Shown piece after piece: positions 4,677 through 29,750 of a DNA stretch of 64,000 bases. The DNA comes from a virus: IMG/VR virus record IMGVR_UViG_3300027996_000008; one strand, 5' to 3'. How positions within the stretch are numbered: position 1 is the first letter of the stretch; the number at the start of each line of letters is the position of its first letter. Below the pieces are notes generated by a model. That model was not told the DNA's origin. It worked only from the letters and a program-made list of their open reading frames with translations, and ran no database searches. Made by a program: the position numbers and the translations under genes.

Positions 4677-4701
4677 ACATTTTGTTAATAACTATTTCTA
4701 T

Positions 4702-5244
4702 TTATAAATTTAATCCTAGTTCTTCAGTAGTCCACAATTTAAATTTAGTTTCATATCTAAAATTAGCATCAGGATGATCAGTTAAAATCAAAAATATTAA
4801 ATCATTCTTTTCAGCAAATCTCTTTGTTGCTTCCCATTTAGCCATATTAACCATATATGTTCTAATTTGTTTTTGATATGTTGATTCTCTTTTTTTTGAT
4901 TTTCTTCCTGTCTTTGTTAATGATTTTGTTGGTGGTTGTGTTTGTGCAAATGGTTTTACTTCACATAACACTCTTTTTATTTCTCCATTTTTATCGGTAA
5001 TTTCAAAATAAAAATCCATAAAATATCTATGTTTATTGCCATCAATTGGTGAAATATAATTTATTATAACCTCTTCCATAACTAGTTTTGTAACACATTT
5101 ATTATTTAATAGATATTTGCAGAAATCTCTTTCCCATCCAGATCTATATATTATTTGATTAGAATTACCACAATACTTCTTTTTGTGTTCTTCAGTAATT
5201 AAAAAGATTTTTCCTTGTTGATAGTTTGGTTTTTTTCTCACCAT
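4702..5244 (-). CDS. gp4: Head completion protein (TnsA-like nuclease fold)
   Basis: YRSGWER-FC-Y, Y-SPIDG--HRYF-DF, EVKP--QT-PP and N-AKWEA motifs. Confidence 0.92.
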   Translation of the reverse strand: MVRKKPNYQQGKIFLITEEHKKKYCGNSNQIIYRSGWERDFCKYLLNNKCVTKLVMEEVIINYISPIDGNKHRYFMDFYFEITDKNGEIKRVLCEVKPFAQTQPPTKSLTKTGRKSKKRESTYQKQIRTYMVNMAKWEATKRFAEKNDLIFLILTDHPDANFRYETKFKLWTTEELGLNL

Positions 5245-10188: not shown

Positions 10189-10216
10189 ATTATACTTATT
10201 TTTCCTTATTTGTCAA
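10189..10216 (-). promoter_or_regulatory. Sigma70-type early promoter
   Basis: TTGACA-16-TATAAT, spacer ends AAG. Confidence 0.75.
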
Positions 10217-10286: not shown

Positions 10287-10337
10287 CCTCCAAAGAACAA
10301 CTTTAATATATTATACTTATAATTTAAAGAATGTCAA
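10287..10337 (-). promoter_or_regulatory. Sigma70-type early promoter with GTTGTTCTTTG leader and GGAGG
   Basis: TTGACA-16-TATAAT followed by gttgttctttggagg. Confidence 0.7.
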
Positions 10338-10354
10338 GAATTATTTAAATAAAA

Positions 10355-10425
10355 ATAAATAATAGAAAGGGTGTTCATTGTGTTGACGCACAATGAACTT
10401 GCAAACGAGGTTGATGTTTGCCCCT
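10355..10425 (+). ncRNA. Putative structured leader (three-way junction), copy A, upstream of an endonuclease gene
   Basis: aggg/ccct closing stem, 10-bp hairpin, tt linker, second hairpin; covarying copy at 24278-24346. Confidence 0.6.
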
Positions 10426-10454
10426 GTTAATCTATTTATATATGAGGTTGAATC

Positions 10455-11600
10455 ATGAAAGAAAAAATTAAATGTCAGATTTGTGAAAGAGAGTTTAAAA
10501 GTTTTCAAAGTTTAGGAAATCATTTAAAAACTCATAAAATGAAATCTAAAAAATATTATGATACATATTTTAAACAAGAAAATGAAGGTGTGTGTTTAGA
10601 ATGTGGAAAAGAAACAAGATTTAAAAGTATTGGACAAGGATATAGACGATTTTGTTCAAATAAGTGTTCTACTAATTCAAAAGAAGTACAAAAAAAGACT
10701 AAAGAAACATGGTTAAAGAATTATGGTGTTGATAACCCAAGTAAATCTGACATAATAAAAAAACAAAAAGAAGAAACTTGCATGAAAAATCATGGAGTTA
10801 CAAACCCTTTAAAATCAGAAGAAATTAGAGAAAAATCAAACCAAACATATTTTGAAAGAACTGGATATAAACATCCTAGCAAAGATCCAAAGATAAAGAA
10901 GCAGAAAGAAGAAACGTGTATGAATAATCATGGAGTTAGTAATCCTAGCAAAGATCCAAAGATAAAGAAGCAGAAAGAAGAAACGTGTATGAATAATCAT
11001 GGAGTTAGTTACCCACTTCAATCTAAAGAAGTGAAAACCAAAATGAAAGAAACAATAAAAGAAAAATATGATGTTGATCATTATTCGCAAACAAAAGAAT
11101 TTAAAGAAAAATTAAAACAAACTTGTCAAGAAAAATATGGATGTGAATATTATTTACAATCTGAAGACAAACAAGAAAAATCAAAACAGACATGTCAAGA
11201 AAGATATGGCGTTGATCATCCTATGCATAATCCAGAAATATTTGAAAAAAATCAAAAATCAAGATTTACTTCTAAACAATACACAATGCCTAGTGGCAAT
11301 ACAAGACTAGTTCAAGGATATGAACATTTAGCATTAGATTTTCTAGTTGAGTTGTATGAAGAAAGTGATATTATCACTAAATCAACAAATGTTCCAAAAA
11401 TTAAGTATATATTTGAAGATAAAAATAGAGTATATACACCCGATATCTACATTCCTTCTGAAAACTTAATAATAGAAGTAAAATCAACTTATACATATGA
11501 AGTTAATCTTGAAAAAAATCTAGCAAAGCGACAAGCATGTTTGAATCAAGGATATGAATTCATGTTTATGATTTTTGATGGTAAAGGAAATTTAATATAA
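10455..11600 (+). CDS. Free-standing homing-endonuclease-like protein: C2H2 finger, 23-aa repeats, C-terminal PD-(D/E)xK nuclease
   Basis: CQICEREFKSFQSLGNHLKTH; repeated K-K-TC---YGV--P; YTPDIYIPSENLIIEVKS; antisense to flanking genes. Confidence 0.8.
   Translation: MKEKIKCQICEREFKSFQSLGNHLKTHKMKSKKYYDTYFKQENEGVCLECGKETRFKSIGQGYRRFCSNKCSTNSKEVQKKTKETWLKNYGVDNPSKSDIIKKQKEETCMKNHGVTNPLKSEEIREKSNQTYFERTGYKHPSKDPKIKKQKEETCMNNHGVSNPSKDPKIKKQKEETCMNNHGVSYPLQSKEVKTKMKETIKEKYDVDHYSQTKEFKEKLKQTCQEKYGCEYYLQSEDKQEKSKQTCQERYGVDHPMHNPEIFEKNQKSRFTSKQYTMPSGNTRLVQGYEHLALDFLVELYEESDIITKSTNVPKIKYIFEDKNRVYTPDIYIPSENLIIEVKSTYTYEVNLEKNLAKRQACLNQGYEFMFMIFDGKGNLI
10873..11009. repeat. 68-bp exact tandem duplication (period 69 bp, one 23-aa unit)
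   Basis: atcctagcaaagatcc...catggagttagt at 10873 and 10942. Confidence 0.92.
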
Positions 11601-11602
11601 TA

Positions 11603-11734
11603 TTATTCATTTTTTTCTGATAAATGTTTTTTCAAACTCTCAATCATTTCAATAATTTTTTTCTGATTTGTTCTTACTTCATTAAGTTGATAAGTTAATT
11701 CTAAAAAATCACTTCTAATTTCACCATAGTCCAT
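11603..11734 (-). CDS. Small hypothetical protein (43 aa)
   Basis: MDYGEIRSDFLELTYQLNEV..., GAGG SD, follows uvsY. Confidence 0.45.
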   Translation of the reverse strand: MDYGEIRSDFLELTYQLNEVRTNQKKIIEMIESLKKHLSEKNE

Positions 11735-11746
11735 TCATTTTTCCTC

Positions 11747-12148
11747 TCATTGTCCGTTTCTAAATTTCTGATAATCTAACATTGTCTGAATGTTAAATCC
11801 AACACCTTTAAGATAATTTATATTTCTTTCACATTCATCAATTTTATTTTTCAACTCCTTAATTGATTTCTCAAGTTCAATAATTTCTTCGTTTGAATTT
11901 TTAAGAAAAATATCTCTATCTTCCTTTGATTTAATTATAGATTGAATATCATATTCTGCTTCATCACTGAGCATATAAAATTCAATTCTTCCTTTTCTTA
12001 ATTTATTATATTCAGATTTTTTATTATTATATTTTGTCACTAAATTGGTCATTCTATCAATTTCCGTGGCATGTAAAGAAGGAATTTGTTTCAATACAAA
12101 TTCTGGTTCGTAAACGTTTAAATCTGTTTTTTCATATATTGTTTTCAT
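11747..12148 (-). CDS. uvsY: Recombination mediator UvsY-like
   Basis: IPSLH...EFY...EEIIELE...GFNIQ-M-DYQKF-NG pattern. Confidence 0.75.
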   Translation of the reverse strand: MKTIYEKTDLNVYEPEFVLKQIPSLHATEIDRMTNLVTKYNNKKSEYNKLRKGRIEFYMLSDEAEYDIQSIIKSKEDRDIFLKNSNEEIIELEKSIKELKNKIDECERNINYLKGVGFNIQTMLDYQKFRNGQ

Positions 12149-12504
12149 TCTCCCTCCGTGACTGTATATGCATAATATAATGTTGTTGATCCTCTAGATT
12201 TTTCATCATACATGTAAAAAATTTTATATTGAAATGTTGGTTCATGATATGACCGTTTTACAGATCCAGTTACTGTTTTAACTTCTGGATCTGTATTATC
12301 TATATGATGCCATTTTTTCCCTTCTTTGTTAATTATGTGTGGCAGTTCAATCATTTCATTAAATTTTCTAAGAGTTTTAACAGAAAATGATTGAACTGTA
12401 TCACTTCCAAAATTATCAAATGTATAAATGTTATTTAAAAATTCACGTTCTATTATTTGCAATAAAAACATTATTGAATTGGCTTTATGATCTATTTCTT
12501 TCAT
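12145..12504 (-). CDS. Hypothetical protein
   Basis: GGAGG SD, coupled to uvsY. Confidence 0.65.
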   Translation of the reverse strand: MKEIDHKANSIMFLLQIIEREFLNNIYTFDNFGSDTVQSFSVKTLRKFNEMIELPHIINKEGKKWHHIDNTDPEVKTVTGSVKRSYHEPTFQYKIFYMYDEKSRGSTTLYYAYTVTEGE

Positions 12505-12528
12505 TTACCCCTCCAAATTTAATCTCTC

Positions 12529-12813
12529 TCATAATATCCTCCTAAATTGAATCAAATTAATATCTCTTCTATCTAAAATCAATTCATTTATTCCCTGTTT
12601 ACGAAAATGTTTTAAATCTATATTGGAAATCTCGAAAACCACCAAATGTGCATATTTAGATGGTTTAAATTTGGAATTGTTAAAGTTACCATCGCAAACC
12701 CTTTCTATTAACCATTCTATATTTGTTGCATAGAATTGAAATCTGCTTCTCAAAGATGGTTTATTAATTATATCTTCAAACTCTTCTTGACAACACATTC
12801 TATATATTAACAT
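12529..12813 (-). CDS. Hypothetical protein
   Basis: GGAGG SD. Confidence 0.6.
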   Translation of the reverse strand: MLIYRMCCQEEFEDIINKPSLRSRFQFYATNIEWLIERVCDGNFNNSKFKPSKYAHLVVFEISNIDLKHFRKQGINELILDRRDINLIQFRRIL

Positions 12814-12902
12814 TTAATCCTCCTTATTTCAAAAGAATATATTCATACAATTATTATGACAACTTAATATAGTTGACATTACACAATTTCTTTTTGTATA
12901 TT

Positions 12903-13394
12903 TCATTGTTCAAACCTCATATTAACCTCTTCAAAGTGAATTGGTGTGTATTTAACCTGTTCACAACTCACACAAACAAATCCATTTTTTCCAACAATTT
13001 TTGAATGCAAATGACCATGTATATTCTTTAAACCAATATCAATTGGTTCATGGCTCAACACATATTCATTTTTGTATATGATTGGATATTCAATAACCCT
13101 ATCAAACCCAACACTCAGCCACCATGTTCTGGTTCGTCTTCTATCATGATTTCCAGGAATTAGTATTTTTTCACCATTCAATTGGTTCAAAATATTTGTT
13201 GTTTGTTCTTTGTTTCCAAAACTGAAGTCTCCTAAAAACCATATTCTAGCTTTTTTTGAAACTTTATTATTCCAATTTTTTATGATAGTTTTATTCATTT
13301 CAAAAATATTAGCAAATTGACTTCTAAACGTTTCATAAAGCAAAATGTTTTCATGATAAAAATGTGTATCTGCTAAAAAATAATCTCTACTCAT
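12903..13394 (-). CDS. Calcineurin-like metallophosphoesterase
   Basis: ADTHF-H, LGD, GNHD, SHEP, HGH-H motifs. Confidence 0.9.
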   Translation of the reverse strand: MSRDYFLADTHFYHENILLYETFRSQFANIFEMNKTIIKNWNNKVSKKARIWFLGDFSFGNKEQTTNILNQLNGEKILIPGNHDRRRTRTWWLSVGFDRVIEYPIIYKNEYVLSHEPIDIGLKNIHGHLHSKIVGKNGFVCVSCEQVKYTPIHFEEVNMRFEQ

Positions 13395-13597
13395 TGTTTA
13401 ATTCCTTCTTCATTTAAAAAATTAATTACTCTTAATGTTGTTTTAGTACAATTGATGTCAATCTCCGCACCAAAACATTTTTTGTATATTTTTACATTAT
13501 GAAAATTAAAATCTTCTTCATCAGATTTACATGTTCTAACAAAGATAACTTTCTCATTTACCTGAACTCTGTTTTTACTTAATCTTTTAACTTTCAT
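13391..13597 (-). CDS. Hypothetical protein
   Basis: GGAG SD, operon packing. Confidence 0.55.
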   Translation of the reverse strand: MKVKRLSKNRVQVNEKVIFVRTCKSDEEDFNFHNVKIYKKCFGAEIDINCTKTTLRVINFLNEEGIKQ

Positions 13598-13618
13598 GAC
13601 ATTCTCCTTAATATAAAT

Positions 13619-13801
13619 TTATAATACTATGAGATACTCTTTTCTTATGTATAGATGACCAATTTTATCAAATAATACCTTATATATTACTTGACCTTTA
13701 TATAAAGAATTAACGATTTCTTTAATCGTTCCAATTTTACCATCAATGAAATCTAATTTTTCATTAATCGAAGAAACTTTTACTTGATCATCTTTTTTCA
13801 T
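13619..13801 (-). CDS. Hypothetical protein (SH3/KOW-like pattern)
   Basis: DQVKV...GKIGTIKEI pattern. Confidence 0.5.
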   Translation of the reverse strand: MKKDDQVKVSSINEKLDFIDGKIGTIKEIVNSLYKGQVIYKVLFDKIGHLYIRKEYLIVL

Positions 13802-13802
13802 A

Positions 13803-14417
13803 TTATTTCTCCAAATGTTTTCTTAATATATTTTCATTAATCTCCCATTGGTTTTCTTTAGCATAAGCATAAGCATCAGCAGCATCAACAGCATTATCAG
13901 CATCAGCAGCATAATAGGCAGCAACAGCAGCACTAACAACAGCAGCATAAGCATAAGTAGCATCAACATCAGTATCATTAGCAGCATCAGCAGCATAAAC
14001 AGAAGCAGCAGCATTAGCGGCAGTAGCAGCAGCAGTAGTAGTATTAACAGCATCATAGGCAACAGCATTATAAGCAATACAAGCAGAATTATGAAATGTA
14101 ATAAGTTCTTTTTTAGAAATTTTACGTACTTTGTAATTCCTAATAGCTTGAATTAAATTTCTAGGTCGAACATCTTTAGGATGTTCTTCCTCAAAAATAT
14201 GAAGTGTAGATTCTTCAATATCCGCAATGACAATACAGTAGTCTTCATATTCTTGGGTGCGAAGTGCCCAAAAAGCATCTTCCACACCATTGATTTCTAA
14301 AATCTGAAGTATTGAAACTTCAGTATCTAGGTTTGTTGTCCCTAAAGATTTACATAATTTTTTCCAGCCGGGTACACACGGATTGAAAGATTTTATTTTC
14401 CCTAAAGTAGTTTTCAT
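13803..14417 (-). CDS. Phage hypothetical protein with Ala-rich low-complexity tract
   Basis: MKTTL-KI----PC--GW-KL---LG and NG--DA-WALR pattern common in phage accessory genes; GCN-rich repeats. Confidence 0.7.
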   Translation of the reverse strand: MKTTLGKIKSFNPCVPGWKKLCKSLGTTNLDTEVSILQILEINGVEDAFWALRTQEYEDYCIVIADIEESTLHIFEEEHPKDVRPRNLIQAIRNYKVRKISKKELITFHNSACIAYNAVAYDAVNTTTAAATAANAAASVYAADAANDTDVDATYAYAAVVSAAVAAYYAADADNAVDAADAYAYAKENQWEINENILRKHLEK

Positions 14418-14433
14418 GATAATCTCCTTAATT

Positions 14434-14483
14434 AAATTAACAACTCACAATACTATTATAATCGATTTTACAAATAATGTCAA
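14434..14483 (-). promoter_or_regulatory. Early promoter with GTTGTTAATTT leader
   Basis: TTGACA-17-TATAAT; 27 bp identical to 40163-40189. Confidence 0.75.
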
Positions 14484-14620
14484 GCTAAAAAATAAAAAAA
14501 TAAATAATAAAAATTTAATTTAATAATTTTAGATAGTTACAAAATAAATGCAAAAAAGACTTGATTTTTAATTTTTTATGCATATAATATAAATAAGAGA
14601 AAGTTTTAGGAGGATTTTGT

Positions 14621-16738
14621 TTGAATAATATTGGGTTTGATCAAAACATTAGAAGATTATCAGAGTTATCATATCTTTATAGATGTGTTAATTCAATAAA
14701 AAAATACAAATACTCTAAAAAACTAACAATGAAAATCCTTCAACTTCTTCTTCTAGGTAATGAAAATTATCAAAATAGAACAAACTCAAAATTCTATATT
14801 TCATTAACAGCAAAAGAAATTGCAAAAACACTAAACAAAAAAGAATCAGAAGTGCAATCTATTTTAGATACTCTTTCACACAATTATAATTCAATGTATG
14901 GTGATAATAATCAATTAGTTGGAAAAGATAAAAATCTATATTTTTATAAAGGCAAAGAAAATGAATATTGGAACAAAATGGGTTTCTTTTTTCCTAGTCT
15001 AGGTACGGTAAATATTAATTATGAATCAATTGCTAAATCAAATGGAAAACTTCCACAAACTTTATTAGTTGCAATATGTGCTCTAGCTTCGAATCTACCG
15101 CATAGTGAAACGAATTTAACTTTTAGATACAAACATATAGAAAATATTTGTGGTATCACACCAGATCAATTTAAATCCATCTGCAAAGAGAATAATTTTG
15201 ATTATAGAATTAAATTTTCAGATGCAACTATAGATGAAAAGAGAATAACAAATGTTTCTAATAATAATAGAATTAGAGGAATTTATTTCACTGATAAAGC
15301 AATCAAAAATGCAAAACAATTATTAGGATTGTATTCATATAATCCAGATTATAAAAATCTTTTCTTATTAGGTGAAATGTTCTATACTAATGTTTCAAAA
15401 ATGACAAAAGATTTTTTCATGAATCAAAAATGGGAAAGATTACCAATAGAAAAAGATGTTTTAGATCTATCATTTTGCAAGTGGACTGAAGAAATATACA
15501 AAAATGCTATTAAATTCTACAGAAACATATCAAATCAAGATAAATTATATTATGTAGAAGATTCTAGTTCTTGCACACCAAATTCAAAGAAAGCAATTGA
15601 TCTAGAAATCAAAAATTCTAATATACACAAAAAAGAGTATTACGACAAGAAATACAAGGACGAGAATGTGAACAAGTTAAAAGATGATTCACCATCATCA
15701 ACTACGTCCGAAACCAAGAACGAAGTCACATTCAACAAAACTTCATATCAAGATTTTTGTTATGAATCAAGAGAACGATTTTCAGAATTGAAAAAAGAAA
15801 GAAAAACTGTTTTCTGCGTATTTGAAATCATCAAAGATTATCTAGAAAAAATGGACAATGAATTGATCAAAGAAAAGCTTGAATCTATCAAAACAATTCA
15901 AGACATTCTTAGATCACCAATGTTTACACATCCAAATGATGTTGCAATTAACATTTCCTTGGAAGAGCATGAATTAAAAGGAAAATGGTATGTTGAAGAA
16001 TCTCTAATCAATATAGATACAACAGAGTATCTAGAAGAAATAGAATTTTTTGATATAATCAATGACATCAAAGATGATTTTTCAAATCCAGAAGATTATG
16101 TAAAAGAAGAAGCAATTGAAGTTTGCAAAGAAAAATTTAAAGATTTAATTTTGTGTTCGGATCACAAAGACTATGTTAAAACATGGTTAGAAAGAGCTGA
16201 TCAAGAATCTAAAAATTTCAAAAGAAAAAAAAGGATGAAAGAATGTTTTGAATTAATGTCACCAGTTTATCTTTTACACAAAATACTAGGTGAAACAGAA
16301 TTTAAAAATGTTAAAGATCTAAAGAAATATATTTTCTCTGATCTTTGTCATCAAAAACTGAACGGCTTCAAAACTGCAATCTATTCTGAAATCAAAGATG
16401 AAGAAACAAGAATCTTTAAAAATTGGATCAACAACACAATGATTGATGAATCAATCTATTATGATTATTTTTCTGAAAAATTTAGAATGAAAGATTATCA
16501 TATTAAAAACAAAAAAATCATTGAAAACTTCATAAAAGAATTTGACAACAAAGTTAAAATTGTCAAAATCAATGAAGAAAGACAAATGGTGATTGATCTA
16601 GTAGAATCTCTTGGTATGAAAATAGGTGGTCTCTATGGAGAAATTGATGAAGATGAAGCAAATCTATTTGAGATAGAACTAATCATGGGTCTAACTACAA
16701 TAGATGACATTAGAAAAAATTTATTAGGTCTTGATTAA
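14621..16738 (+). CDS. Large hypothetical protein with N-terminal winged-HTH-like segment
   Basis: 705-aa ORF, TTG start with AGGAGG; SLTAKEIAKTLNKKESEVQSILDTL resembles an HTH. Confidence 0.7.
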   Translation: MNNIGFDQNIRRLSELSYLYRCVNSIKKYKYSKKLTMKILQLLLLGNENYQNRTNSKFYISLTAKEIAKTLNKKESEVQSILDTLSHNYNSMYGDNNQLVGKDKNLYFYKGKENEYWNKMGFFFPSLGTVNINYESIAKSNGKLPQTLLVAICALASNLPHSETNLTFRYKHIENICGITPDQFKSICKENNFDYRIKFSDATIDEKRITNVSNNNRIRGIYFTDKAIKNAKQLLGLYSYNPDYKNLFLLGEMFYTNVSKMTKDFFMNQKWERLPIEKDVLDLSFCKWTEEIYKNAIKFYRNISNQDKLYYVEDSSSCTPNSKKAIDLEIKNSNIHKKEYYDKKYKDENVNKLKDDSPSSTTSETKNEVTFNKTSYQDFCYESRERFSELKKERKTVFCVFEIIKDYLEKMDNELIKEKLESIKTIQDILRSPMFTHPNDVAINISLEEHELKGKWYVEESLINIDTTEYLEEIEFFDIINDIKDDFSNPEDYVKEEAIEVCKEKFKDLILCSDHKDYVKTWLERADQESKNFKRKKRMKECFELMSPVYLLHKILGETEFKNVKDLKKYIFSDLCHQKLNGFKTAIYSEIKDEETRIFKNWINNTMIDESIYYDYFSEKFRMKDYHIKNKKIIENFIKEFDNKVKIVKINEERQMVIDLVESLGMKIGGLYGEIDEDEANLFEIELIMGLTTIDDIRKNLLGLD

Positions 16739-17156
16739 GATTTAATTTTTCTAAATGTTTGTTTTATTTTTAAGAAATTTATTCATAGTAATAATATAAC
16801 TGTGTCAATTTATTATTCGATGTTTGAATTATTATAAAATAATTAAGAAATTTACATATTAATTACAATACTGAATAATTTAAGAAAAAAGAAAATAATT
16901 ATAACAAAAACAAAAAAATTATTAAAATTCTAAGTTTGTGAGTTCCTTGAACGATCAAACAACATTAGAAATTAAATTATATATTAAGTTTATCAAAAAT
17001 ATTTAACATTATTTGAATTATTGAAATTAAATAAAATAATAATAATATTTCAGTATGTTTTTTACATTAATTTATAGAATATAATAGAGATTTTTTTGTT
17101 TTTAAAATATTACAGATTATGTCCTTGACTTTTTGAATAATATAACACAGTTAATC
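16739..17156. other. Extremely AT-rich non-coding region, candidate replication origin/unwinding element
   Basis: Largest intergenic gap in the window; imperfect inverted and direct repeats; near the main strand switch. Confidence 0.35.
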
Positions 17157-17861
17157 CTATCCAATCATTATATCATACACCTCCATGTATTCTTCTTTCA
17201 TTCTTTGTTCTAATTTTTCAAGTTCTTCTCTTGCAGTTTGTTCCATTTCTTGCCAATTTACAGTAGTTCCACTTAATAATTCCCCTGAATATTTTTTTAA
17301 ATTCATACACCATTGTAGTATACATTTCTGTGTTACAAATTCTTCAAAAAATTCATCATCATGTAAATATTCACTATCATCAATAGAATTGTCAATCCAC
17401 ACTTCAAGAGCAATATCATTTAATCCTTGAGTGTTTAGGAATTGTAATTTCTTTGTATTTTTATTAAAACTAAACAGATGTTTTTGCCCAAATGTTATAT
17501 CAATATCTCTCATATAAGCAGTAAAGATTGAATAATCCATTATATTGCCTAATGCTATACTAGTCATATTTCTTTCTAAGAATAGTTTTCTCCATGATGG
17601 TGTTCCACCTGCTGCTGAATTATCAGCTTTATAATATCCAGTTACTGAGTGAATATTACTTGGTAGTGTGTATTCAGTTGTTCCAGAAGTAAGTGTTAGC
17701 ACATAAACTTGCTCTTTTGCGCCATCATAATGCATTTCTATCATCCTTTTCATTGAACGTCTGTATACATTAGTAAATTGAGGATCTGTTAGTTCAACTA
17801 CATGAAATCCATCACCCATATTATTAAGTATTCTTGTTTTAAAATCTGCTAAAGTTGTCAT
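17157..17861 (-). CDS. gp13: Neck protein gp13-like
   Basis: VELTD-Q, HYDG-KE, W--NL-KY-G-L--G--VN motifs; late promoter upstream. Confidence 0.85.
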   Translation of the reverse strand: MTTLADFKTRILNNMGDGFHVVELTDPQFTNVYRRSMKRMIEMHYDGAKEQVYVLTLTSGTTEYTLPSNIHSVTGYYKADNSAAGGTPSWRKLFLERNMTSIALGNIMDYSIFTAYMRDIDITFGQKHLFSFNKNTKKLQFLNTQGLNDIALEVWIDNSIDDSEYLHDDEFFEEFVTQKCILQWCMNLKKYSGELLSGTTVNWQEMEQTAREELEKLEQRMKEEYMEVYDIMIG

Positions 17862-17886
17862 TATTTTCACCTTTTTTAAAATTTAT

Positions 17887-17919
17887 CTTGACATTATTTA
17901 TAAAATAAGTATAATTATA
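17887..17919. promoter_or_regulatory. Bidirectional cassette: early promoter (+) with late TATAAATA (-) nested in its spacer
   Basis: cttgacattatttataaaataagtataattata, identical at 52222-52254. Confidence 0.75.
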
Positions 17920-17948
17920 ATAACATTTTATTATATTAGGAGGTTAAT

Positions 17949-18239
17949 ATGAAAGAAATAAATGTAGTTGGATTTGTAAAATGTAAAAAATGTAATCATT
18001 ATCCAACTATTTTTTCACAAGAAGCTAATAAAAATCAACCATCACATGTTGCACTTTGTATGTGTGAATATGGTGATGAATTGTATGCAAATACCAAAGA
18101 AGAATTAATTACAAAATTTAATGAAAGAAATTCTGAAACAAAGAAACAGAAATTCAAACCTAATTGTTCTGATTGTTCATTGTTTGTTGGTGGGTGTTGT
18201 AGCTCACCTAATGGATGTTATTATTTAAAGGAGGATTAA
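17949..18239 (+). CDS. Hypothetical Cys-rich (Zn-binding) protein
   Basis: CKKC, CxC, CxxC motifs; GGAGG SD. Confidence 0.65.
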   Translation: MKEINVVGFVKCKKCNHYPTIFSQEANKNQPSHVALCMCEYGDELYANTKEELITKFNERNSETKKQKFKPNCSDCSLFVGGCCSSPNGCYYLKED

Positions 18240-18240
18240 A

Positions 18241-18663
18241 ATGAAAGAAAAAAAACTTGTTGAAAAAGTATGTCCATTGGTTGGAAAAAAATGTATTGGT
18301 GAAAAGTGTGAATTTGCTAATACAACAGTAGAAAAAATAATAATAAATGAAGGAAGAGTATTAACACCAAAATATTTAATAAGTTTGAAAAATGATACAT
18401 ATGAAAAAATGAAATCTGAAGCTAAATCAAAAATAATAGAACACCTAAAAAAATCATTTTTTAGTTTAAATAATAATGAATATTTAAAAATAATAGATAT
18501 AATATTAAAAAATCCTGAAGAATATGAAACTGACAATAGTATTTTAGATTATTGTAATATATGTTTATGGTATGAAATTGTATTTCAACTTGTTGAATAT
18601 AAAACAACTAGTAAAATTAATTGTAATATTAAACAAAGTTATAATGGGTGTCGAAATGAGTGA
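18241..18663 (+). CDS. Hypothetical protein
   Basis: GGAGG SD; CP...C-GEKC motif. Confidence 0.6.
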   Translation: MKEKKLVEKVCPLVGKKCIGEKCEFANTTVEKIIINEGRVLTPKYLISLKNDTYEKMKSEAKSKIIEHLKKSFFSLNNNEYLKIIDIILKNPEEYETDNSILDYCNICLWYEIVFQLVEYKTTSKINCNIKQSYNGCRNE

Positions 18664-18920
18664 TATAATTACACGACTAAAGAGACAGACGAATTTTTCA
18701 CTGTTGAAATTCCAGAAGATGTCAAAATTACAACAAGTGTTCTATTTTATTGTAAATATTCATTTGAGCGACTTATCATCAAATATGAGTATGTTATGAG
18801 CAAGAGTATATAGTATTTGAAAATATATGCAAAATACAAAAGTAAGAAAGATATTTATGTATTTTTGGTTGATGAAAAACAAGAGAAACATGATATTACA
18901 CCAAAAGAGGAGGAAGGAAA

Positions 18921-19187
18921 TTGTCAATATTAGTTAAAAATAAAAAAACAGGAAAATGGGAATATGATCATGATCCTACAAATAAGACAACAAAACTTAG
19001 TATTCTTGTTATATTAATTATCATTCTTTCTTATATTATAACTATTGATGATATTAGGAAGGAAAGCCGATGTAAAAGAACTACCGAATATCAAAATGCA
19101 TATAAACAATGTATTTTGAATGGTGGTGAATATTGTCATCTTACAGTAATAGAAATAATGTCAAATAATTGTGGAAATGAGGATTAA
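18921..19187 (+). CDS. Hypothetical membrane protein
   Basis: Single hydrophobic segment LSILVILIIILSYIITI. Confidence 0.55.
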   Translation: MSILVKNKKTGKWEYDHDPTNKTTKLSILVILIIILSYIITIDDIRKESRCKRTTEYQNAYKQCILNGGEYCHLTVIEIMSNNCGNED

Positions 19188-19188
19188 A

Positions 19189-19458
19189 ATGAAAGAAAAA
19201 AAATTAGTTGAAAAAACAAACGCAATGACAGAATTAAACCTAATTCTAAATGATTGGACACAAAAGTTCTTTGGTGAAGATAAAGGTTTATTTGTTGAAA
19301 TGACCTTAACAGCAATAGCGCTTAATAGCAAAGCAGACTTTGTTGACAGCACTTTATCATTTTCTAAACACATGACATCAGAACAGATCGAAAAACATTC
19401 TAAGGCGTTGCTAGATTATTCAAAACAAATAGAAAAAGAAATGGATGAGGAAAAGTAA
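19189..19458 (+). CDS. Hypothetical protein
   Basis: Start MKEKKLVEK after GAGG SD. Confidence 0.6.
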   Translation: MKEKKLVEKTNAMTELNLILNDWTQKFFGEDKGLFVEMTLTAIALNSKADFVDSTLSFSKHMTSEQIEKHSKALLDYSKQIEKEMDEEK

Positions 19459-19671
19459 ATGATTAAAAAGATACTAACAACTTTATGGAAAGATATAAAG
19501 TGTATGAATGATAAACATGATTATGAAATATTTAAAGAGGAAGAATTTGATAGTGTATATGGACCTGCAAACTCACACATATATAAATGTAAAAATTGTG
19601 GAAAAGAATATTCAGGAACTACAATTTCATTAGGAACATTTAAATGGAAAACAAATGAAAATAATAAATGA
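19459..19671 (+). CDS. Hypothetical Zn-ribbon protein
   Basis: C..H...CKNCG pattern. Confidence 0.6.
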   Translation: MIKKILTTLWKDIKCMNDKHDYEIFKEEEFDSVYGPANSHIYKCKNCGKEYSGTTISLGTFKWKTNENNK

Positions 19672-19710
19672 AATTAATTAATATTAAAAGAGGTTTGAGA
19701 ATGGTGAAAA

Positions 19711-20163
19711 ATGAAAATAATAAATGAAGATAAGATGATCAGAGAATTTTTCAAAGGAGGAAGAATGGAAAATCAAGTTTTAAAATTAAAATTAGACAAA
19801 GGTGTAAAGATACCTGAATATCAGACAGAAGGTGCAAGTGGGTTTGATATTGCTGCAAATGAAACTGTCATAATTCCAAAAGGAAAAAGGAAAATCATAT
19901 CCACTGGAATAAGGTGTCAAATTCCAAAAGGTTATGAAATTCAAATAAGACCAAGAAGTGGACTTGCTGCAAGGGAAGGTTTGACTGTTCTTAATGCACC
20001 AGGCACTATAGATGAAAATAATAATAATGAAATAAAGATCATCCTATACAATACATCAGATTATTCTTTTCGTGTTAAGAAGGGCATGAGAATCGCTCAG
20101 GGAGTGCTTCAATATGTGCCCAAAGCAGACATTGTTGTTGTTGAAAATTTAAAAGAAATATAA
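19711..20163 (+). CDS. dut: dUTPase-like protein with degenerate motif 3 and no motif 5
   Basis: SGFDI, RPRSG, MRIAQ present; GTIDENNNNE replaces G-ID-DY-GE; ends before the Gly-rich motif 5. Confidence 0.8.
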   Translation: MKIINEDKMIREFFKGGRMENQVLKLKLDKGVKIPEYQTEGASGFDIAANETVIIPKGKRKIISTGIRCQIPKGYEIQIRPRSGLAAREGLTVLNAPGTIDENNNNEIKIILYNTSDYSFRVKKGMRIAQGVLQYVPKADIVVVENLKEI

Positions 20164-20173
20164 GGAGATTTAA

Positions 20174-21211
20174 ATGATTAAACTTACTTGTTTACAATGT
20201 GGAAAAACATTTGAAATATATCCTAGTAGATTTAAGAAAGGAGAAGCAAAATATTGTTCTAGAAAATGTTCTGATATTTCAAAAAAATTATCAGATAACG
20301 TAAAATGTTCAATATGTGGAAAAACATTTCATGTTAAACCTCATAGATTAAACAGATTAAAAGATAAAGAAAAAATATGTTGTTCTAAAGAATGTGCATA
20401 TGAGCTTAAAAAGACTGAATTTCTAGGTGAAAAAAATCATCAATATGGATTAAAAGGAGAATTAAATTCAACATATAAGGGTGATTTATCTTTAACTAAT
20501 TACGGATATTTAGATTTGAGATGTTTAACACATCCATTTAAAAATAGTAGTAACAAAATTTTTTTACATAGAATAATAATGGAAGAACATTTAAGAGCAA
20601 ATTATCCAGATTCTGAATATTTAATTGGTGTAAAAGATTTTGACGAATTATTTTTAGATCCTTCTGTTGTTATTCATCATAAAGATCTAAATAAATTAAA
20701 TAATACAATTGAAAACTTAGAAATTATGTCATTGGGTGATCATACTTCATTACATGTAAAAGACATGAAAATGAAAAGAGATGAAAAGGGAAGATATAAA
20801 AAAATTAAAGGAAAACAAAAAGGTTCTAAATTATATAAAAGACATATATTTGATGCTGGGTTAGATATAAAATCAAATGAAGAAATTATAATTGAACCAA
20901 ATGCTAGAAAATTATTATCAACAGATTTATATATAAAAATTCCAAATGAATATGTTGGCATAATATGGTCCAGAAGTGGATTATCAGTAAAACACGGAAT
21001 TCAAGTTGGTGCAGGGTGTATAGATTCAACGTACACAGGGGAAGTTAAAATTCTTTTATATAATTTTGGAGATAAACCATTTAAAGTTAATGTTGGTGAT
21101 AGAATAGCACAGTTATTAACAATTCCAATAAATATAGAAAATTATGAATATGTAAAAGAACTTGATGAAACCGATCGTGGAGAAAATGGTTTTGGGTCGA
21201 CTGGTGTTTGA
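20174..21211 (+). CDS. dut: HNH endonuclease - trimeric dUTPase fusion
   Basis: N-terminal Cys4 fingers, HHKD-NK-NN-IENL--M----H HNH, then AGLD, SRSG, GCIDSTYTGE, DRIAQL, RGENGFGSTG. Confidence 0.88.
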   Translation: MIKLTCLQCGKTFEIYPSRFKKGEAKYCSRKCSDISKKLSDNVKCSICGKTFHVKPHRLNRLKDKEKICCSKECAYELKKTEFLGEKNHQYGLKGELNSTYKGDLSLTNYGYLDLRCLTHPFKNSSNKIFLHRIIMEEHLRANYPDSEYLIGVKDFDELFLDPSVVIHHKDLNKLNNTIENLEIMSLGDHTSLHVKDMKMKRDEKGRYKKIKGKQKGSKLYKRHIFDAGLDIKSNEEIIIEPNARKLLSTDLYIKIPNEYVGIIWSRSGLSVKHGIQVGAGCIDSTYTGEVKILLYNFGDKPFKVNVGDRIAQLLTIPINIENYEYVKELDETDRGENGFGSTGV

Positions 21212-21214
21212 TTT

Positions 21215-21445
21215 ATGAAAACAAAAACTGATATTGCTAAAGAACATTTTAAAAATAAAGAATATAAAAAATCTTTAAAAATATTTAAAACATTTAATAG
21301 AATTTTTAACAAAGAAGAATTAGATATTCTTAATAGAGCATATGAATGTTTTAGTTTTAGTAGTTTTTATAAACAATTAAATTTTGATTGTGAAAAAATT
21401 ATAGAATCAGCCAAGGAATTAATAATTAAAAAATATGGTGTTTAA
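21215..21445 (+). CDS. Hypothetical helical (TPR-like) protein
   Basis: Operon packing. Confidence 0.55.
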   Translation: MKTKTDIAKEHFKNKEYKKSLKIFKTFNRIFNKEELDILNRAYECFSFSSFYKQLNFDCEKIIESAKELIIKKYGV

Positions 21446-22489
21446 ATGTGCTATGAAAAAATAAAAATTATAGAATATAAAGGAAAAACTTTTAAAACAA
21501 AAACATGGTGTGAAATAACAGAGAAAGAACGTATTAATTTAAAAGAAGAATATTTTAAGAAACCAGATATTAAAGAAGTTGTCGAAGAATTAGAATATAT
21601 TTCAAGTGGAACAATTAAAGTTTCAAATATTAAAAAATATTTTTTTAGAGACATACAATCAAAGGTTGTTGTTCATAGTGCAAAATGGTCTATTGAAGAT
21701 GTTTTTGAAAGTAATGATATTTTGGGTCATTTTATTAAACAAGTTGAAAAATTAAAAGGATATTTTGAAGAAAATGAAAGTATATCTAATAAAATGGATA
21801 CAGTTTTTAGACTTGCTGGTATAGGTGTTGCAAAAAAACCAACAAATTTTCCAATAAGTCAAGTTAGAAAAATTTTATATGAATATAACATAAACAACAA
21901 TTATTATGATTATTCATGTGGTTGGGGTGATAGATTACTTGGTTCATTATCATGTAATATAAATTATTTTGGAACAGATCCAAATTATCTTTTAACACCT
22001 AGATTAAAAGAACTAGGACAATTATTTTTAGAAACAAATTATCATAAAAACGCAACATTTGATGTTAAATGTCAAGGTAGTGAATTATTTATTCCAGAAT
22101 ATGAAGATAAAATGGGAGTTGCTTTTTCTAGTCCTCCTTATTTTTTACTAGAGGATTATAAGATAGGTAAACAAAGTTGTAATGAGAATACAAATTATGA
22201 AGATTGGTTAAATGATTACTGGAAAAATACTGTTATTAATATTGAAAAATATTTAATAAACGAAGGAACTCTATTGGTTAATATTAAACCATATAAAAAA
22301 TATGATCTTTATAATGACACAATGAAAATATGTATAGACAATGGATTTTATTTATATGATGAGATAGATATGAAAAATATTTCAAGAAAAAAATCAGGAT
22401 CAAAGGAATTAGTTGAAAATGATGAAAAAATAATGGTTTTAAAGAAAAATAGTAATTGCATTGAAAAAAATGATTTTGAATGGTTTTGA
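21446..22489 (+). CDS. DNA amino-methyltransferase (motif I before motif IV)
   Basis: YDYSCGWGDRLLG (SAM-binding) and FSSPPY (catalytic). Confidence 0.85.
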   Translation: MCYEKIKIIEYKGKTFKTKTWCEITEKERINLKEEYFKKPDIKEVVEELEYISSGTIKVSNIKKYFFRDIQSKVVVHSAKWSIEDVFESNDILGHFIKQVEKLKGYFEENESISNKMDTVFRLAGIGVAKKPTNFPISQVRKILYEYNINNNYYDYSCGWGDRLLGSLSCNINYFGTDPNYLLTPRLKELGQLFLETNYHKNATFDVKCQGSELFIPEYEDKMGVAFSSPPYFLLEDYKIGKQSCNENTNYEDWLNDYWKNTVINIEKYLINEGTLLVNIKPYKKYDLYNDTMKICIDNGFYLYDEIDMKNISRKKSGSKELVENDEKIMVLKKNSNCIEKNDFEWF

Positions 22490-22532
22490 AAATTATAAAT
22501 AAACAAATATAAAACAATAAAAGAGAAATAAA

Positions 22533-22784
22533 ATGAATGAAACAATGACAACAAGTGGAATTGCAACGTATGATGTAACCCAAAAATCTGAACCTGATTC
22601 AGAACATTATAAAAAGAAATGTTTTGATATGAATAAAAATGAATTTTCAAAGTTGATAAAAAGAAATTGCATTCCAGATAGAATTCAAAAATATATGGCA
22701 AATTTTAGAAACTCCGATATATATGTAAATTACAATAAAGTGAAAATAAATTTAAAGAAATTGCTAGGAGGTAATAAAAAATGA
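22533..22784 (+). CDS. Hypothetical late protein
   Basis: TATAAATA at 22494. Confidence 0.6.
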   Translation: MNETMTTSGIATYDVTQKSEPDSEHYKKKCFDMNKNEFSKLIKRNCIPDRIQKYMANFRNSDIYVNYNKVKINLKKLLGGNKK

Positions 22785-23284
22785 AGAAAATGTATGTTTT
22801 CATAGGAAGAAATGAAGGAAAACCAATTACAATATCATTTAACAGAAACAAAACATTGACATTAAAGTTTGGAGATATTGTTAAATTGGAAGATAGTGAA
22901 TATACAGCTTATTCACAATTTTTTGCACCAAAGATTAAAGAAAAAGTTGAAGAAGTAGATATAAATGTTGTTCTTGATGATTCACTTAATGATATTTCTA
23001 TTTCACAAGTTATTAAAGTTGATGAAGAAGTTGAAGAAGAAAAAGAAATTGAAGTAGAATTTTATGATACAATACAAGTTGTCGAAGCAGATGGAACAAT
23101 TTCAGAGGAAATTGAAATAGAACCTATAATTCCTGTTGAAAATGCTACAGAAGATAATAAATACAAAGAAGCAGACTTGTACGAATTGAAAAACAAAGAA
23201 TTGAAAAAGATATGCAAGACGTTGAAAGTTGATGACAAAGGCAATAAGAAACAACTGGTTGAAAGAATATTAGAGAATATATAA
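22781..23284 (+). CDS. Acidic protein with C-terminal SAP/Rho-N-like DNA-binding module
   Basis: LYELKNKELKKICKTLKVDDKGNKKQLVERIL. Confidence 0.65.
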   Translation: MKKMYVFIGRNEGKPITISFNRNKTLTLKFGDIVKLEDSEYTAYSQFFAPKIKEKVEEVDINVVLDDSLNDISISQVIKVDEEVEEEKEIEVEFYDTIQVVEADGTISEEIEIEPIIPVENATEDNKYKEADLYELKNKELKKICKTLKVDDKGNKKQLVERILENI

Positions 23285-23325
23285 ATAAAGATGGTAATTA
23301 CTAATTAAAATTTTTGGAGAAAAAA

Positions 23326-24201
23326 ATGAAAAAAAGTTACACAACACTTATTGATTGTACGCTGGATTTATATTCAGGCATAACAAAATTTATTGCTGAT
23401 GGTGTTTCAGTTGATTTAGATGAAGACTATGGTTCAGATCTAGTGGATGCTGGTATTTTAGTTGCAAACACTGATTGGACAAAACCTGTTAATGCTCTGT
23501 CTTTAGCATCTACAGCAGGAGACACCGCGTATGATTTCGATATGGATGGTTTTACAGGAGAAAAACTTCTTAAGATAGATGCAACTACAACTGGTGAAGA
23601 TCTACCAACGGGAAGTACTATTGTAATCAAAGTTCAGAATGCAGCTGGAACAACTGACTATGAAACAATCACTCTTGCAGTCGGAGCAATCACTGCGGCT
23701 GCTACAACAACTTTCTACATCAAACCACAAGCACTTTTAAAAACACTTGGAACAAGATTGAATTTTTCTGGCACTATAAAAGATCCTGCAAGCGGAACGG
23801 GAATCACCACTATCACTGTTACTTTAATTGATGAAGTGGTAGCAGACGCTGTTATATGGACAATTGGCGCTGAAGGATCTGATAAAATTAATGTAGGAAT
23901 GCAACTTCTTGATTCTGCTGGTGATGCACTAGTTAATTCTGCTGGTATTGTAGAATTTTATATTTCTAGCGATAACAGAGGAATTGTTCCTGTTGCTACA
24001 AGCGATAGTTTAGCTATAGGAACTGCTGGTGATATTCTTGCAGTATTAGAAGCAAAACAAACACTTTTACTTGTTAGTGAGCTTGATGGAACCGTGGATG
24101 TGGATGTGGAAGAAGCCACAGGTGGACCAACTGTTTACGCTGTTGTTAAATTTGATGATGGTAGAAAAGTTGTTTCTCCACCAATAACATTTACTGCTTA
24201 A
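23326..24201 (+). CDS. Putative virion structural/decoration protein
   Basis: Late promoter at 23280; Thr/Ala/Gly/Val/Asp-rich beta-type composition; followed by a terminator. Confidence 0.5.
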   Translation: MKKSYTTLIDCTLDLYSGITKFIADGVSVDLDEDYGSDLVDAGILVANTDWTKPVNALSLASTAGDTAYDFDMDGFTGEKLLKIDATTTGEDLPTGSTIVIKVQNAAGTTDYETITLAVGAITAAATTTFYIKPQALLKTLGTRLNFSGTIKDPASGTGITTITVTLIDEVVADAVIWTIGAEGSDKINVGMQLLDSAGDALVNSAGIVEFYISSDNRGIVPVATSDSLAIGTAGDILAVLEAKQTLLLVSELDGTVDVDVEEATGGPTVYAVVKFDDGRKVVSPPITFTA

Positions 24202-24230
24202 TTAATACCCAACTCTCAACTCTCCGATAT

Positions 24231-24260
24231 AAGGCGTCCTTCTTGGGCGCCTTTTTTGTT
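24231..24260 (+). terminator. Rho-independent terminator
   Basis: aaggcgtcc-ttctt-gggcgcctt followed by a T-run. Confidence 0.88.
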
Positions 24261-24277
24261 TCTATATGTTTTTATAA

Positions 24278-24346
24278 ATAAATAATAGAAAGGGTGTTGA
24301 ATGAACTGGAATTCATTCAACTTTGTGTTACGGAGTGACACACCCT
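24278..24346 (+). ncRNA. Putative structured leader (three-way junction), copy B
   Basis: First 21 nt identical to copy A; compensatory changes in the stems; overlaps late promoter TATAAATA. Confidence 0.6.
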
Positions 24347-24376
24347 ATAAGTTATATATATTATACGGAGATCAAG

Positions 24377-24532
24377 ATGAAAAGTCAAGAATTATTAGAA
24401 AAAATAATTAAAAAAGAAATTTGTGTAATTTATAAAATTACTAATTTGGTTAATAATAAAGTTTATATAGGAAGCAGTATTAGAGCATATAAACGAATGA
24501 AAAATAATCATATTAGAAATTTAATCATTTGA
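24377..24532 (+). pseudogene. Truncated GIY-YIG homing endonuclease (51 aa)
   Basis: VIYKITNLVNNKVYIGSS..KR then a stop; catalytic Glu/Asn region absent. Confidence 0.8.
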
Positions 24533-24556: not shown

Positions 24557-25147
24557 TTGAAAGTCATTCTAAACAACATATCTAACACATGGACAAGTAT
24601 TCTTTCAGCAGCAAGAAACACAGTTAATAAATCACCACTTGATAAAGAACCATCTAAAAAATTCAAACTAAATCTATTGATTGCAGAACATTCACCAATT
24701 AGGAAATTAAAAATAGACTGGACGTGGAAAGGTTTGAAAAGTTGGATTGCAACACATTTCAGCAGACATTCAATTGGGACAATTCATTTCATATCCACAC
24801 AAAGAAATGATAGAACAAACAACAACAGAGACAAATCACCACAAGACACACCAGTTAACCACAATTGTGAGGCAAACGCACAAGCAATCATCAACATATC
24901 TAGAAAACGGTTATGTAATCAATCACACAAAGAGACTAGAGAAGCATGGAAATCACTTCTAGAAACATTCAAAGAAGAAGAACCAGAACTATATCTTGTT
25001 TGTGTGCCTGAATGTGTGTATAGGTTTGGATGTCCAGAAATGAACAATTGTGGATTTTTCAATCAATTCAGAAATGAATATAAAGACTATGATCTGAGTG
25101 ATATCAAAAAAAGATATGAAAAGTTCTTGACTTATAGAAAAAAATAA
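24557..25147 (+). CDS. thyX: Flavin-dependent thymidylate synthase-like protein
   Basis: AEHSPIR, HFSRH, STQR-DR, -RKRLC, VPECVYR pattern. Confidence 0.72.
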   Translation: MKVILNNISNTWTSILSAARNTVNKSPLDKEPSKKFKLNLLIAEHSPIRKLKIDWTWKGLKSWIATHFSRHSIGTIHFISTQRNDRTNNNRDKSPQDTPVNHNCEANAQAIINISRKRLCNQSHKETREAWKSLLETFKEEEPELYLVCVPECVYRFGCPEMNNCGFFNQFRNEYKDYDLSDIKKRYEKFLTYRKK

Positions 25148-29695: not shown

Positions 29696-29750
29696 CTTTT
29701 TTTGCACAGTAACACTATTTATGTTACTATGCAGTTTAATGTTACTAGGT

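Follow-up and report, generated by a model that had tools for sequence, protein, structure and literature searches.

Introduction

In a 64,000-nucleotide (nt) stretch of viral DNA (IMG/VR virus record IMGVR_UViG_3300027996_000008; "the window" below means the whole of this stretch), two homing endonuclease genes of unrelated fold are each preceded by the same small element, a late-promoter-like box followed by two hairpins in a junction-like arrangement. What is this element, and what does it do in front of both genes? Homing endonuclease expression has to be enough for spread of the gene and not so much as to harm the phage. To our knowledge, the only documented controls of these genes are hairpins that mask the ribosome-binding site (RBS), late promoters, and autorepression by I-TevI. 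Here we report that the element has at least five covarying copies and forms the 5′ end of a mobile nuclease cassette, and we propose that it may give rise to an antisense RNA that holds down translation of the nuclease.

Results

Two copies of one fold in the window

The two copies within the window, with their boxes, hairpins, and downstream genes, are laid out as follows.

10354-10361, + strand: late-promoter-like box AATAAATA of copy 1, 6 nt before the closing stem; predicted start about 10367
10368-10425, + strand: fold of copy 1, closing stem 10368-10371 with 10422-10425; covariance model score 99.4 bits
10373-10382, loop 10383-10388, 10389-10398, + strand: hairpin 1 of copy 1
10401-10406, loop 10407-10415, 10416-10421, + strand: hairpin 2 of copy 1
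10455-11600, + strand: intact DUF7487 homing endonuclease gene (C2H2 finger, repeated modules, C-terminal D...EVK nuclease motif)
24277-24284, + strand: late-promoter-like box AATAAATA of copy 2; TATAAATA overlaps it at 24273-24280
24291-24346, + strand: fold of copy 2, closing stem 24291-24294 with 24343-24346; covariance model score 93.9 bits
24296-24305, loop 24306-24311, 24312-24321, + strand: hairpin 1 of copy 2
24324-24329, loop 24330-24336, 24337-24342, + strand: hairpin 2 of copy 2
24377-24532, + strand: GIY-YIG remnant, an N-terminal stub of 51 amino acids (aa) ended by TGA, co-oriented with its neighbours

The copies (10353-10428 and 24276-24349) have 23 identical bases in common, and a 21-mer from this shared start occurs twice in the window against 0.04 expected occurrences. 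The minimum-energy fold is the same in both (z = -3.9 and -4.4 against dinucleotide shuffles). It is a three-way junction in which an AGGG/CCCU closing stem of 4 bp, one unpaired U, hairpin 1, a UU linker, and hairpin 2 follow one another, hairpin 1 being a perfect 10-bp helix with a 6-nt loop and hairpin 2 having 6 bp and a loop of 7-9 nt. In the pairwise alignment all 20 pairs are intact in each copy and nine are changed on both sides, comprising 4 of the 10 pairs of hairpin 1 and 5 of the 6 pairs of hairpin 2; when the 3′ partner columns were slid by 1-3 positions, pairing fell to 35-45%. Partition-function folds gave the stems a pairing probability near 1. No pair of the fold involves the Shine-Dalgarno (SD) region: SD bases were largely unpaired in these folds of copy 1 and of copy 3 (described below), and in copy 2 the predicted partner of the SD is coding sequence downstream of it rather than the fold. 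Elsewhere in the window, leaders behind late boxes are short and lack structure (-2 to -11 kcal/mol versus -23 kcal/mol for the element).

These results agree with what a sequence-only reading of the window had proposed for the pair, namely an identical start (given there as 21 bases rather than 23), a common fold with compensatory changes in hairpin 1 and a divergent second hairpin, a start codon 29-30 nt after the fold, a fold lying wholly upstream of the SD, and a PD-(D/E)xK nuclease behind one copy with a GIY-YIG remnant behind the other. As to the nuclease, the 381-aa product of the copy 1 gene, which has its C2H2 finger at the N-terminus, matches DUF7487 with an E value of 1.8e-81, and its PD-(D/E)xK match, which is TnsA-like, is sub-threshold. 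This gene is antiparallel to the neighbouring genes.

A family of five covarying copies

When a covariance model was trained on nothing but the two window copies, it picked up three more, scoring 65-67 bits, on other contigs of this phage population; no unrelated match exceeded 17 bits, and the next matches in the rest of the window likewise stayed at or below 17 bits. The five copies and the genes behind them are listed here.

Copy 1, window 10353-10428: intact DUF7487 nuclease
Copy 2, window 24276-24349: GIY-YIG stub
Copy 3, contig L067 203-278: intact 268-aa DUF7487 nuclease, 56% identical to the copy 1 nuclease
Copy 4, contig L219 5476-5402: decayed DUF7487 gene (71-aa stub, then frameshifted repeats; nuclease domain deleted)
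Copy 5, contig L230 324-399: intact 367-aa GIY-YIG+NUMOD3 nuclease, its N-terminus 59% identical to the copy 2 stub

Nuclease open reading frames (ORFs) of two families stand behind all five copies. All of them belong to one phage population or lineage, and the total is to be read as at least five, the metagenome scan for further copies having given at least one true new copy (that of L067) among the matches listed, most of which fell in an RBS region of gut bacteria that has nothing to do with the element.

In the alignment of all five copies, each of the 100 pair cells is paired and nine pairs are changed on both sides. None of 500 shuffles reached the observed values, and slid controls gave 37-46% pairing. 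Watson-Crick pairs fill 99 of the 100 cells, the sole G-U pair lying in hairpin 2 of copy 2. The same junction was predicted independently from the five copies by RNAalifold. Because the closing stem is invariant in all copies, covariation cannot test it. In hairpin 1, 6 of the 10 positions are invariant (GTT.A.TG), and the junction strands measure 1, 1-2, and 0-1 nt (U; UU, U, or UG; none or C). The two-hairpin, junction-like fold is a real, selected structure.

Comparison with Rfam 15 at gathering thresholds let only two tRNAs pass across the window and matched the element to no family. Local E-value scans of the element gave noise (best 12-28 bits versus thresholds of 37-100); int-alpA did not match it, and sar scored 12.7 bits against a gathering score of 43. 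Several known identities were considered and rejected. A self-cleaving ribozyme of the hammerhead type was dismissed since the junction strands leave no room for a catalytic core and Rfam gives no match, and a group I intron fragment since Rfam gives no match, a terminator lies upstream, and the ORFs are free-standing. A tRNA-like or RNase P substrate would have CCA and T-arm features, which are absent; GGA, expected of a CsrA site, is absent from three of the loops; and a translated upstream ORF coupled to the nuclease start is not conserved.

The element is the 5′ end of a mobile nuclease cassette

Filled and empty sites allowed the limits of the cassette to be placed.

4708-4712, no strand: empty site of copy 3, where the variant contig L067 carries a 922-bp insert (L067 203-1124)
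53658-53672, no strand: empty site of copy 4, a 15-bp direct repeat flanking a 1219-bp insert that L219 and L221 carry and the window lacks

The flanks of the L067 insert match window 4649-4708 and 4712-4809, and the window is therefore the empty site for copy 3. The insert contains the box, the fold, the SD, and the gene for the 268-aa DUF7487 nuclease; it starts 2 nt before CATAAATA and ends 12 nt past the nuclease stop codon. That of L219 and L221 contains the decayed DUF7487 gene headed by the fold, and on the copy 4 side homology to the empty site ends no more than 5 nt from the box. L230 is an allele of the locus downstream of gp23 represented by L225 and L226, in which an inverted GIY-YIG gene has taken the place of the resident co-oriented one; the exchanged segment (L230 324-1526) runs from base 1 of the conserved block as far as the stop codon. 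All three insertion or replacement boundaries lie 0-5 nt from the box. These three filled/empty or replaced alleles show that the mobile unit consists of box, fold, spacer, SD, and nuclease ORF. The element is the 5′ end of the mobile nuclease cassette itself and not a free-standing noncoding RNA (ncRNA) gene near nucleases.

This settles part of what the sequence-only reading had left as a choice between a cis-regulatory RNA and a nuclease-associated ncRNA: the structure is selected and belongs to no Rfam family, as that reading had supposed, and the idea of a free-standing ncRNA falls away. Two of the checks suggested with it, a covariance search and a comparison with Rfam, came out in its favour, the new copies covarying and all standing before nuclease genes, and its view that the structure travels with nucleases of two unrelated folds now extends to an intact GIY-YIG+NUMOD3 gene.

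The heads of the cassettes are mosaics. Copy 4 combines hairpin 1 of copy 1 with hairpin 2 and the SD of copy 3, and copy 5 combines hairpin 1 of copy 4 with the hairpin-2 stem of copy 1. Moreover, hairpin 1 at window 10373-10398 is exactly inverted relative to L219 5431-5456 and L230 344-369 (26 bases, 100% identical on the opposite strand), with the stem unchanged and the loop TTGACG of copy 1 turned into CGTCAA in copies 4 and 5. Such an inversion is the signature of a flip or a template switch at a perfect inverted repeat, and its exactness shows that the loop-1 sequence is free and that exchange at the DNA level takes place inside the head.

At the locus downstream of gp23, L225/L226 1439-2254 and L230 324-1526 hold related GIY-YIG nucleases in opposite orientations, with 73-75% DNA identity in parts; one allele has a terminator plus sigma70 promoter as its head and the other the folded head, and about 40 nt of the end of the old gene adjoin the new cassette. 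The same phage has a GIY-YIG gene, P0133, that is headed by a terminator and a perfect sigma70 promoter instead of the fold. Near the empty site of copy 3, a 412-aa ORF (3438-4676, - strand) with DUF4379 treble-clef and CapR-homology domains is mostly an insertion of about 1.2 kb (3448-4648) relative to the L067 allele, and the ORF has captured both the late promoter and the first 13 or so codons of the gene next to it. In L067 this ORF is missing and the DUF7487 cassette is present 60 bp away, the two alleles holding different mobile genes at adjacent sites.

A search of PDB sequences with the nuclease domain of the copy 1 protein gave zero matches. The number of repeats in this DUF7487 nuclease varies in the population, through internal modules of about 69 bp, between 381 aa and 358 aa (L009-L011). 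Behind the GIY-YIG stub, and in frame with it across the TGA, lies a 196-aa ThyX-like ORF (24557-25147, + strand; Pfam Thy1 E value 2.7e-4, below the cut-off). A 256-aa fusion of stub and ThyX-like ORF was considered as a read-through allele and rejected as an artefact, the JGI call, made on a short contig, having taken TGA for Trp.

The loop of hairpin 2 copies the SD of its own gene

The match between loop and SD in the window is located as follows.

10407-10414, + strand: GAGGTTGA in the loop of hairpin 2, copy 1, an exact copy of SD region 10444-10451
10444-10457, + strand: SD region GAGGTTGA and ATG of the copy 1 nuclease gene
24329-24335, + strand: TACGGAG in hairpin 2, copy 2, an exact copy of SD region 24364-24370

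Across the five copies, loop and SD compare as listed here.

Copy 1: loop GAGGTTGA, SD GAGGTTGA, 8/8
Copy 2: loop TACGGAG, SD TACGGAG, 7/7
Copy 3: loop GAGGTAG, SD GAGATAG, 6/7
Copy 4: loop GAGGTAG, SD GAGGTAG, 7/7
Copy 5: loop GGAGTCA, SD GGAGTCA, 7/7

Non-cognate combinations of loop and SD share 3-6 nt, and the shuffle P values of the four exact matches are 0.01-0.04 per copy. Copy 5 has a hairpin-2 stem of the copy 1 type but a different loop, which equals its own SD and from which that SD was predicted before it was read. Since the flanking bases of the loop are lineage-specific, a constant partner such as 16S rRNA cannot explain the match. No complement of the motif was found when the + strand of every cassette was searched; the sole encoded complement of the SD is the hairpin-2 loop read on the opposite strand. 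In a putative antisense RNA, pairing between this complement and its cognate SD would extend over 7-8 nt for four copies and over 6 of 7 positions for copy 3, and would be cognate-specific, the duplexes being predicted at -11 to -13 kcal/mol for cognate combinations versus -3 to -9 kcal/mol for non-cognate ones (copy 3 is taken up in the Discussion).

Late-promoter-like boxes on both sides of the fold

Three further signals flank the two window copies.

10433-10440, - strand: perfect TATAAATA box, 7 nt from the complement of the fold; predicted antisense start about 10427
10310-10337, - strand: perfect sigma70-type promoter TTGACA-16-TATAAT, serving flanking minus-strand genes, just outside the cassette
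24231-24253, + strand: intrinsic terminator of the upstream gene, just before copy 2

The + strand box reads AATAAATA in copies 1, 2, and 5 and CATAAATA in copies 3 and 4. It lies 6 nt before AGGG in all five copies; the fold spans 56-58 nt, the distance from CCCT to ATG is 29-30 nt, and the SD is about 19-22 nt 3′ of the fold. The + strand of the element has no -35/-10 pair. Given that T4 late transcripts start 6 nt after the box, the predicted transcript begins 1 nt before the closing stem. The sequence NATAAATA is the reported late motif of marine T4-like phages (PMC2984593).

On the minus strand, four of the five copies have a sequence match to a second box between fold and SD (TATAAATA in copy 1, AATAAATA in copies 3-5). 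Its gap of 7-8 nt to the complement of the closing stem mirrors the + strand geometry, and the invariant block, read on this strand, is CCCU followed by a U-rich run.

Besides the promoter listed above, a second perfect TTGACA-16-TATAAT promoter lies on the minus strand (10189-10216), the two being no more than 150 bp apart, and similar promoter blocks occur at 25119, 32673, 53661, and 60071. For the cassettes of copies 1 and 4, the distance between the insertion and the -35 hexamer of such a block is the same, 17 nt. At 24360-24388 (- strand), a sigma70-like TTGACT-17-TATAAT match lies across the beginning of the GIY-YIG stub, directed into the complement of copy 2; with 1.9 such matches expected in that stretch, it may have arisen by chance.

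Source phage and distribution of the element

The window has a G+C content of 26% and codes for a T4-type portal protein, a neck protein, UvsY, an SbcC/gp46-like ATPase, RNase H, DNA polymerase B, and an intein-bearing NrdD. Its structural genes, those for portal and neck among them, are preceded by TATAAATA boxes 25-45 nt upstream. From this T4-type gene set and these boxes, the source is an uncultured T4-like phage.

Close matches to the window were restricted to metagenome contigs, nearly identical to it, that come from a small number of samples in JGI, ENA, and Logan. Samples with this phage include JGI 3300023276 and 3300028045 and ENA ERZ27250540, ERZ27250310, and ERZ27250269. Searches of INPHARED for DNA of near identity gave zero matches, a 17-mer scan and a degenerate box-plus-hairpin pattern scan of IMG/VR gave chance matches only, and no close relatives turned up in IMG/VR when the nuclease, the ThyX-like protein, or the upstream protein was the query. 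Among contigs of the same population (>99.9% identical), no informative variation of copies 1 and 2 was found. The element is absent from 80 of 80 loci of DUF7487 homologues in IMG/VR and is therefore no general companion of DUF7487 nucleases; as judged from these searches, it is confined to this phage lineage.

Other selfish elements of the window, an HNH-dUTPase fusion and an NrdD intein with LAGLIDADG (20174-21211; 37059-40028), are without a folded head. At 31927-31975 (+ strand), a AATAAATA box precedes a stretch similar to the 5′ half of the tRNA-His gene (29623-29696), a gene that shares this box and leader; a tRNA was not called for the stretch, which is possibly a tRNA remnant.

Discussion

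We tentatively favour the reading that the element is the conserved regulatory head of mobile free-standing homing endonuclease cassettes, in which convergent late transcription would yield an antisense RNA that brakes translation of the nuclease through pairing of loop and SD. The match between loop and SD, together with the late box on the opposite strand, points to an antisense or bidirectional mechanism over a simple cis leader. According to the proposed mechanism, an (A/C)ATAAATA late box would drive the nuclease mRNA, with the fold at its 5′ end followed by an A/U-rich spacer of about 30 nt, the SD, and the nuclease ORF. The second box, facing the other way in the spacer, would lead to convergent transcription of the head of about 75 bp. 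The minus-strand product would be an antisense RNA of about 70 nt, beginning 2 nt 5′ of the complementary fold and extending into the U-rich stretch that is complementary to the invariant block; it would consist of a 5′ hairpin with a 9-nt SD-complementary loop, a perfect 10-bp hairpin, and a U-rich tail, with hairpin 1 acting as a sequence-independent structural or terminator hairpin. Its hairpin-2 loop would pair with the SD of its own gene, and the RNA with the whole leader, so that nuclease translation would be held down. Another possible role of the outward-facing box is to bring back late transcription of host genes that an antiparallel insertion has cut off. We infer three things: transcription of either strand starts from the boxes, the U-rich tract is where the antisense RNA ends, and translation is repressed when loop and SD pair. 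An antisense RNA of this kind would explain why the loop covaries with the SD by identity, why the hairpin-1 loop is free, and how the head works with unrelated nucleases. It is conceivable, with somewhat less assurance, that cassettes of T4-like homing endonucleases carry a self-contained, reprogrammable antisense module, an RNA of about 70 nt whose loop is rewritten to match the RBS of the nuclease to which it is joined.

Several observations weigh against an antisense mechanism. In copy 3, whose gene is intact, the SD differs from the loop at one central base and the predicted duplex amounts to only -5 kcal/mol. The minus-strand box is eight bases of A and T only, set in a spacer that is itself rich in A/T, and it may owe its presence to chance and shared ancestry; copy 2 lacks it, having only TATATATA and the sigma70-like match; and its occurrence tracks antiparallel insertion (4/4), which an outward promoter for host genes fits equally well. 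The U-rich tail (UUCUAUUAUUUAU) follows a branched fold and not a simple GC hairpin, and the terminator scan made no call. The lone G-U pair, in hairpin 2 of copy 2, favours the + strand, and the five copies amount to about four independent lineages.

That G-U pair fits a fold acting only in the sense strand, in cis on the late nuclease mRNA, as a 5′-terminal protection from 5′-end-dependent decay, with the SD-like loop as a decoy or standby site for ribosomes through which translation is tuned. In each of the five copies the fold starts 1 nt past the predicted late start, at a fixed distance of 29-30 nt from the ATG, and its robust stems leave the SD of copies 1 and 3 largely unpaired. Both 5′-terminal stem-loops that stabilise mRNA (the E. 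coli ompA leader) and SD-like stabilisers (the B. thuringiensis cryIIIA STAB-SD) are established, which also counts for such a leader. However, a decoy or stabiliser needs only the SD core, so it leaves unexplained why 3-4 flanking loop bases track the SD of their own gene, and it does not account for a late box on the opposite strand at the mirror-image distance; small upstream ORFs starting from the loop are not conserved (copy 2 has none), and the spacing from SD to ATG is 2, 3, or 7 nt. We regard a sense-strand leader as rather unlikely. An element acting at the DNA level, whose inverted repeats would be protein-binding palindromes (an operator downstream of the late promoter) or PeSL-like crossover points for cassette heads, is improbable. 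It would accommodate the almost exclusively Watson-Crick pairing, the six invariant positions of hairpin 1, which resemble an operator half-site, the exact inversion that sets hairpin 1 of copies 4 and 5 apart from that of copy 1, an event at the DNA level, and the mosaics of copy 1-type and copy 3-type modules in copies 4 and 5, which imply exchange within the head; crossovers of PeSL cassettes map inside the stem-loops (PMC2839356), and I-TevI represses its own late promoter through an operator (PMC2988022). Against this, the hairpin-2 stems turn over fully while the loop tracks the SD, as would not be expected of an operator, and autoregulation by the protein would need convergent evolution, given that two unrelated nuclease folds share the element. 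A 10-bp stem with a 6-nt spacer is also short for cruciform extrusion, and the AGGG/CCCT closing stem, drawn across 50 nt, has no obvious role in DNA.

Slightly less probable still is a module for insertion repair or insulation, in which the outward late box restores late transcription of host genes, the fold and U-rich tract attenuate antisense transcripts reading through, and the nuclease itself goes unregulated. A good minus-strand box in all four antiparallel copies, its absence from the only co-oriented one (copy 2), and its retention in the decayed copy 4 speak for this, and invading endonucleases can bring promoters for their neighbours (T4 mobile-element review, PMC2988022). Yet the identity of loop and SD and the perfect fold kept in copy 2 would both go unexplained, and the host genes beside copies 1 and 4 already have perfect sigma70 promoters next to the cassette.

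If the antisense reading is correct, a selfish gene brings its own translational brake when it invades a new genome. The arrangement differs from the documented controls in that it is portable, lies physically within the mobile cassette, is common to two unrelated nuclease folds, and has a loop that covaries by identity with the RBS. It provides a worked example of regulatory heads reshuffled between selfish genes in T4-like phages. The covariance model is a means of finding more members, and the hypothesis of loop-SD antisense pairing is amenable to compensatory mutations.

In P22 sar/ant and IS10 RNA-OUT/RNA-IN, a short antisense RNA from a leader promoter facing the promoter of the gene acts on the RBS of a potentially harmful gene. 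Among known systems, sar and RNA-OUT are the nearest mechanistic analogues; they overlap the RBS, whereas the putative antisense RNA described here would stop short of it and reach the SD through its mirroring loop. Antisense transcription beside a homing endonuclease gene has been detected in a marine T4-like phage, the cyanophage S-PM2, where the antisense RNA CfrI links psbA to the homing endonuclease F-CphI (Millard et al. 2010, as summarised in PMC12197685). Compared by description, CfrI is longer than the putative RNA proposed here and is encoded between psbA and the endonuclease gene, not as a multi-copy covarying cassette head.

Homing endonuclease genes of T-even phages (I-TevI, I-TevII, I-TevIII, and segB) and mobE of Aeh1 have leader hairpins that mask the RBS, with a nested late promoter (PMC2988022). 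Like these, the element places a structured RNA and a T4-type late promoter directly 5′ of a homing endonuclease ORF, with restraint of expression as the presumed purpose. Unlike them, it leaves the SD downstream and pairs none of its bases, whereas there the RBS sits in the hairpin; its box precedes the whole fold in all five copies, whereas there the late promoter lies inside the hairpin and late transcripts lack the 5′ arm; and its loop copies the SD instead of pairing with it. The nearest published oddity comes from Aeromonas phage 25, where the seg43(25) hairpin, predicted to be very stable, lies immediately 5′ of the RBS of a seg-type endonuclease gene and, as here, does not sequester it (PMC2988022). 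Compared by description, it is a single hairpin abutting the RBS, and no loop-SD match, second promoter, or multi-copy family is reported for it. Finally, the PeSL cassettes of T4-type phages consist of a GC-rich terminator stem-loop followed by a sigma70 early promoter and lie beside ORFans (PMC2839356, PMC4122927). The element resembles them as a short motif of promoter and stem-loop at the edges of indels, where unrelated genes are exchanged, and the same phage has a PeSL-like head on another GIY-YIG gene. It differs from them in that a late-type box is followed by two A/U-rich hairpins, with no sigma70 promoter on the + strand, and in that it occurs only at nuclease genes.

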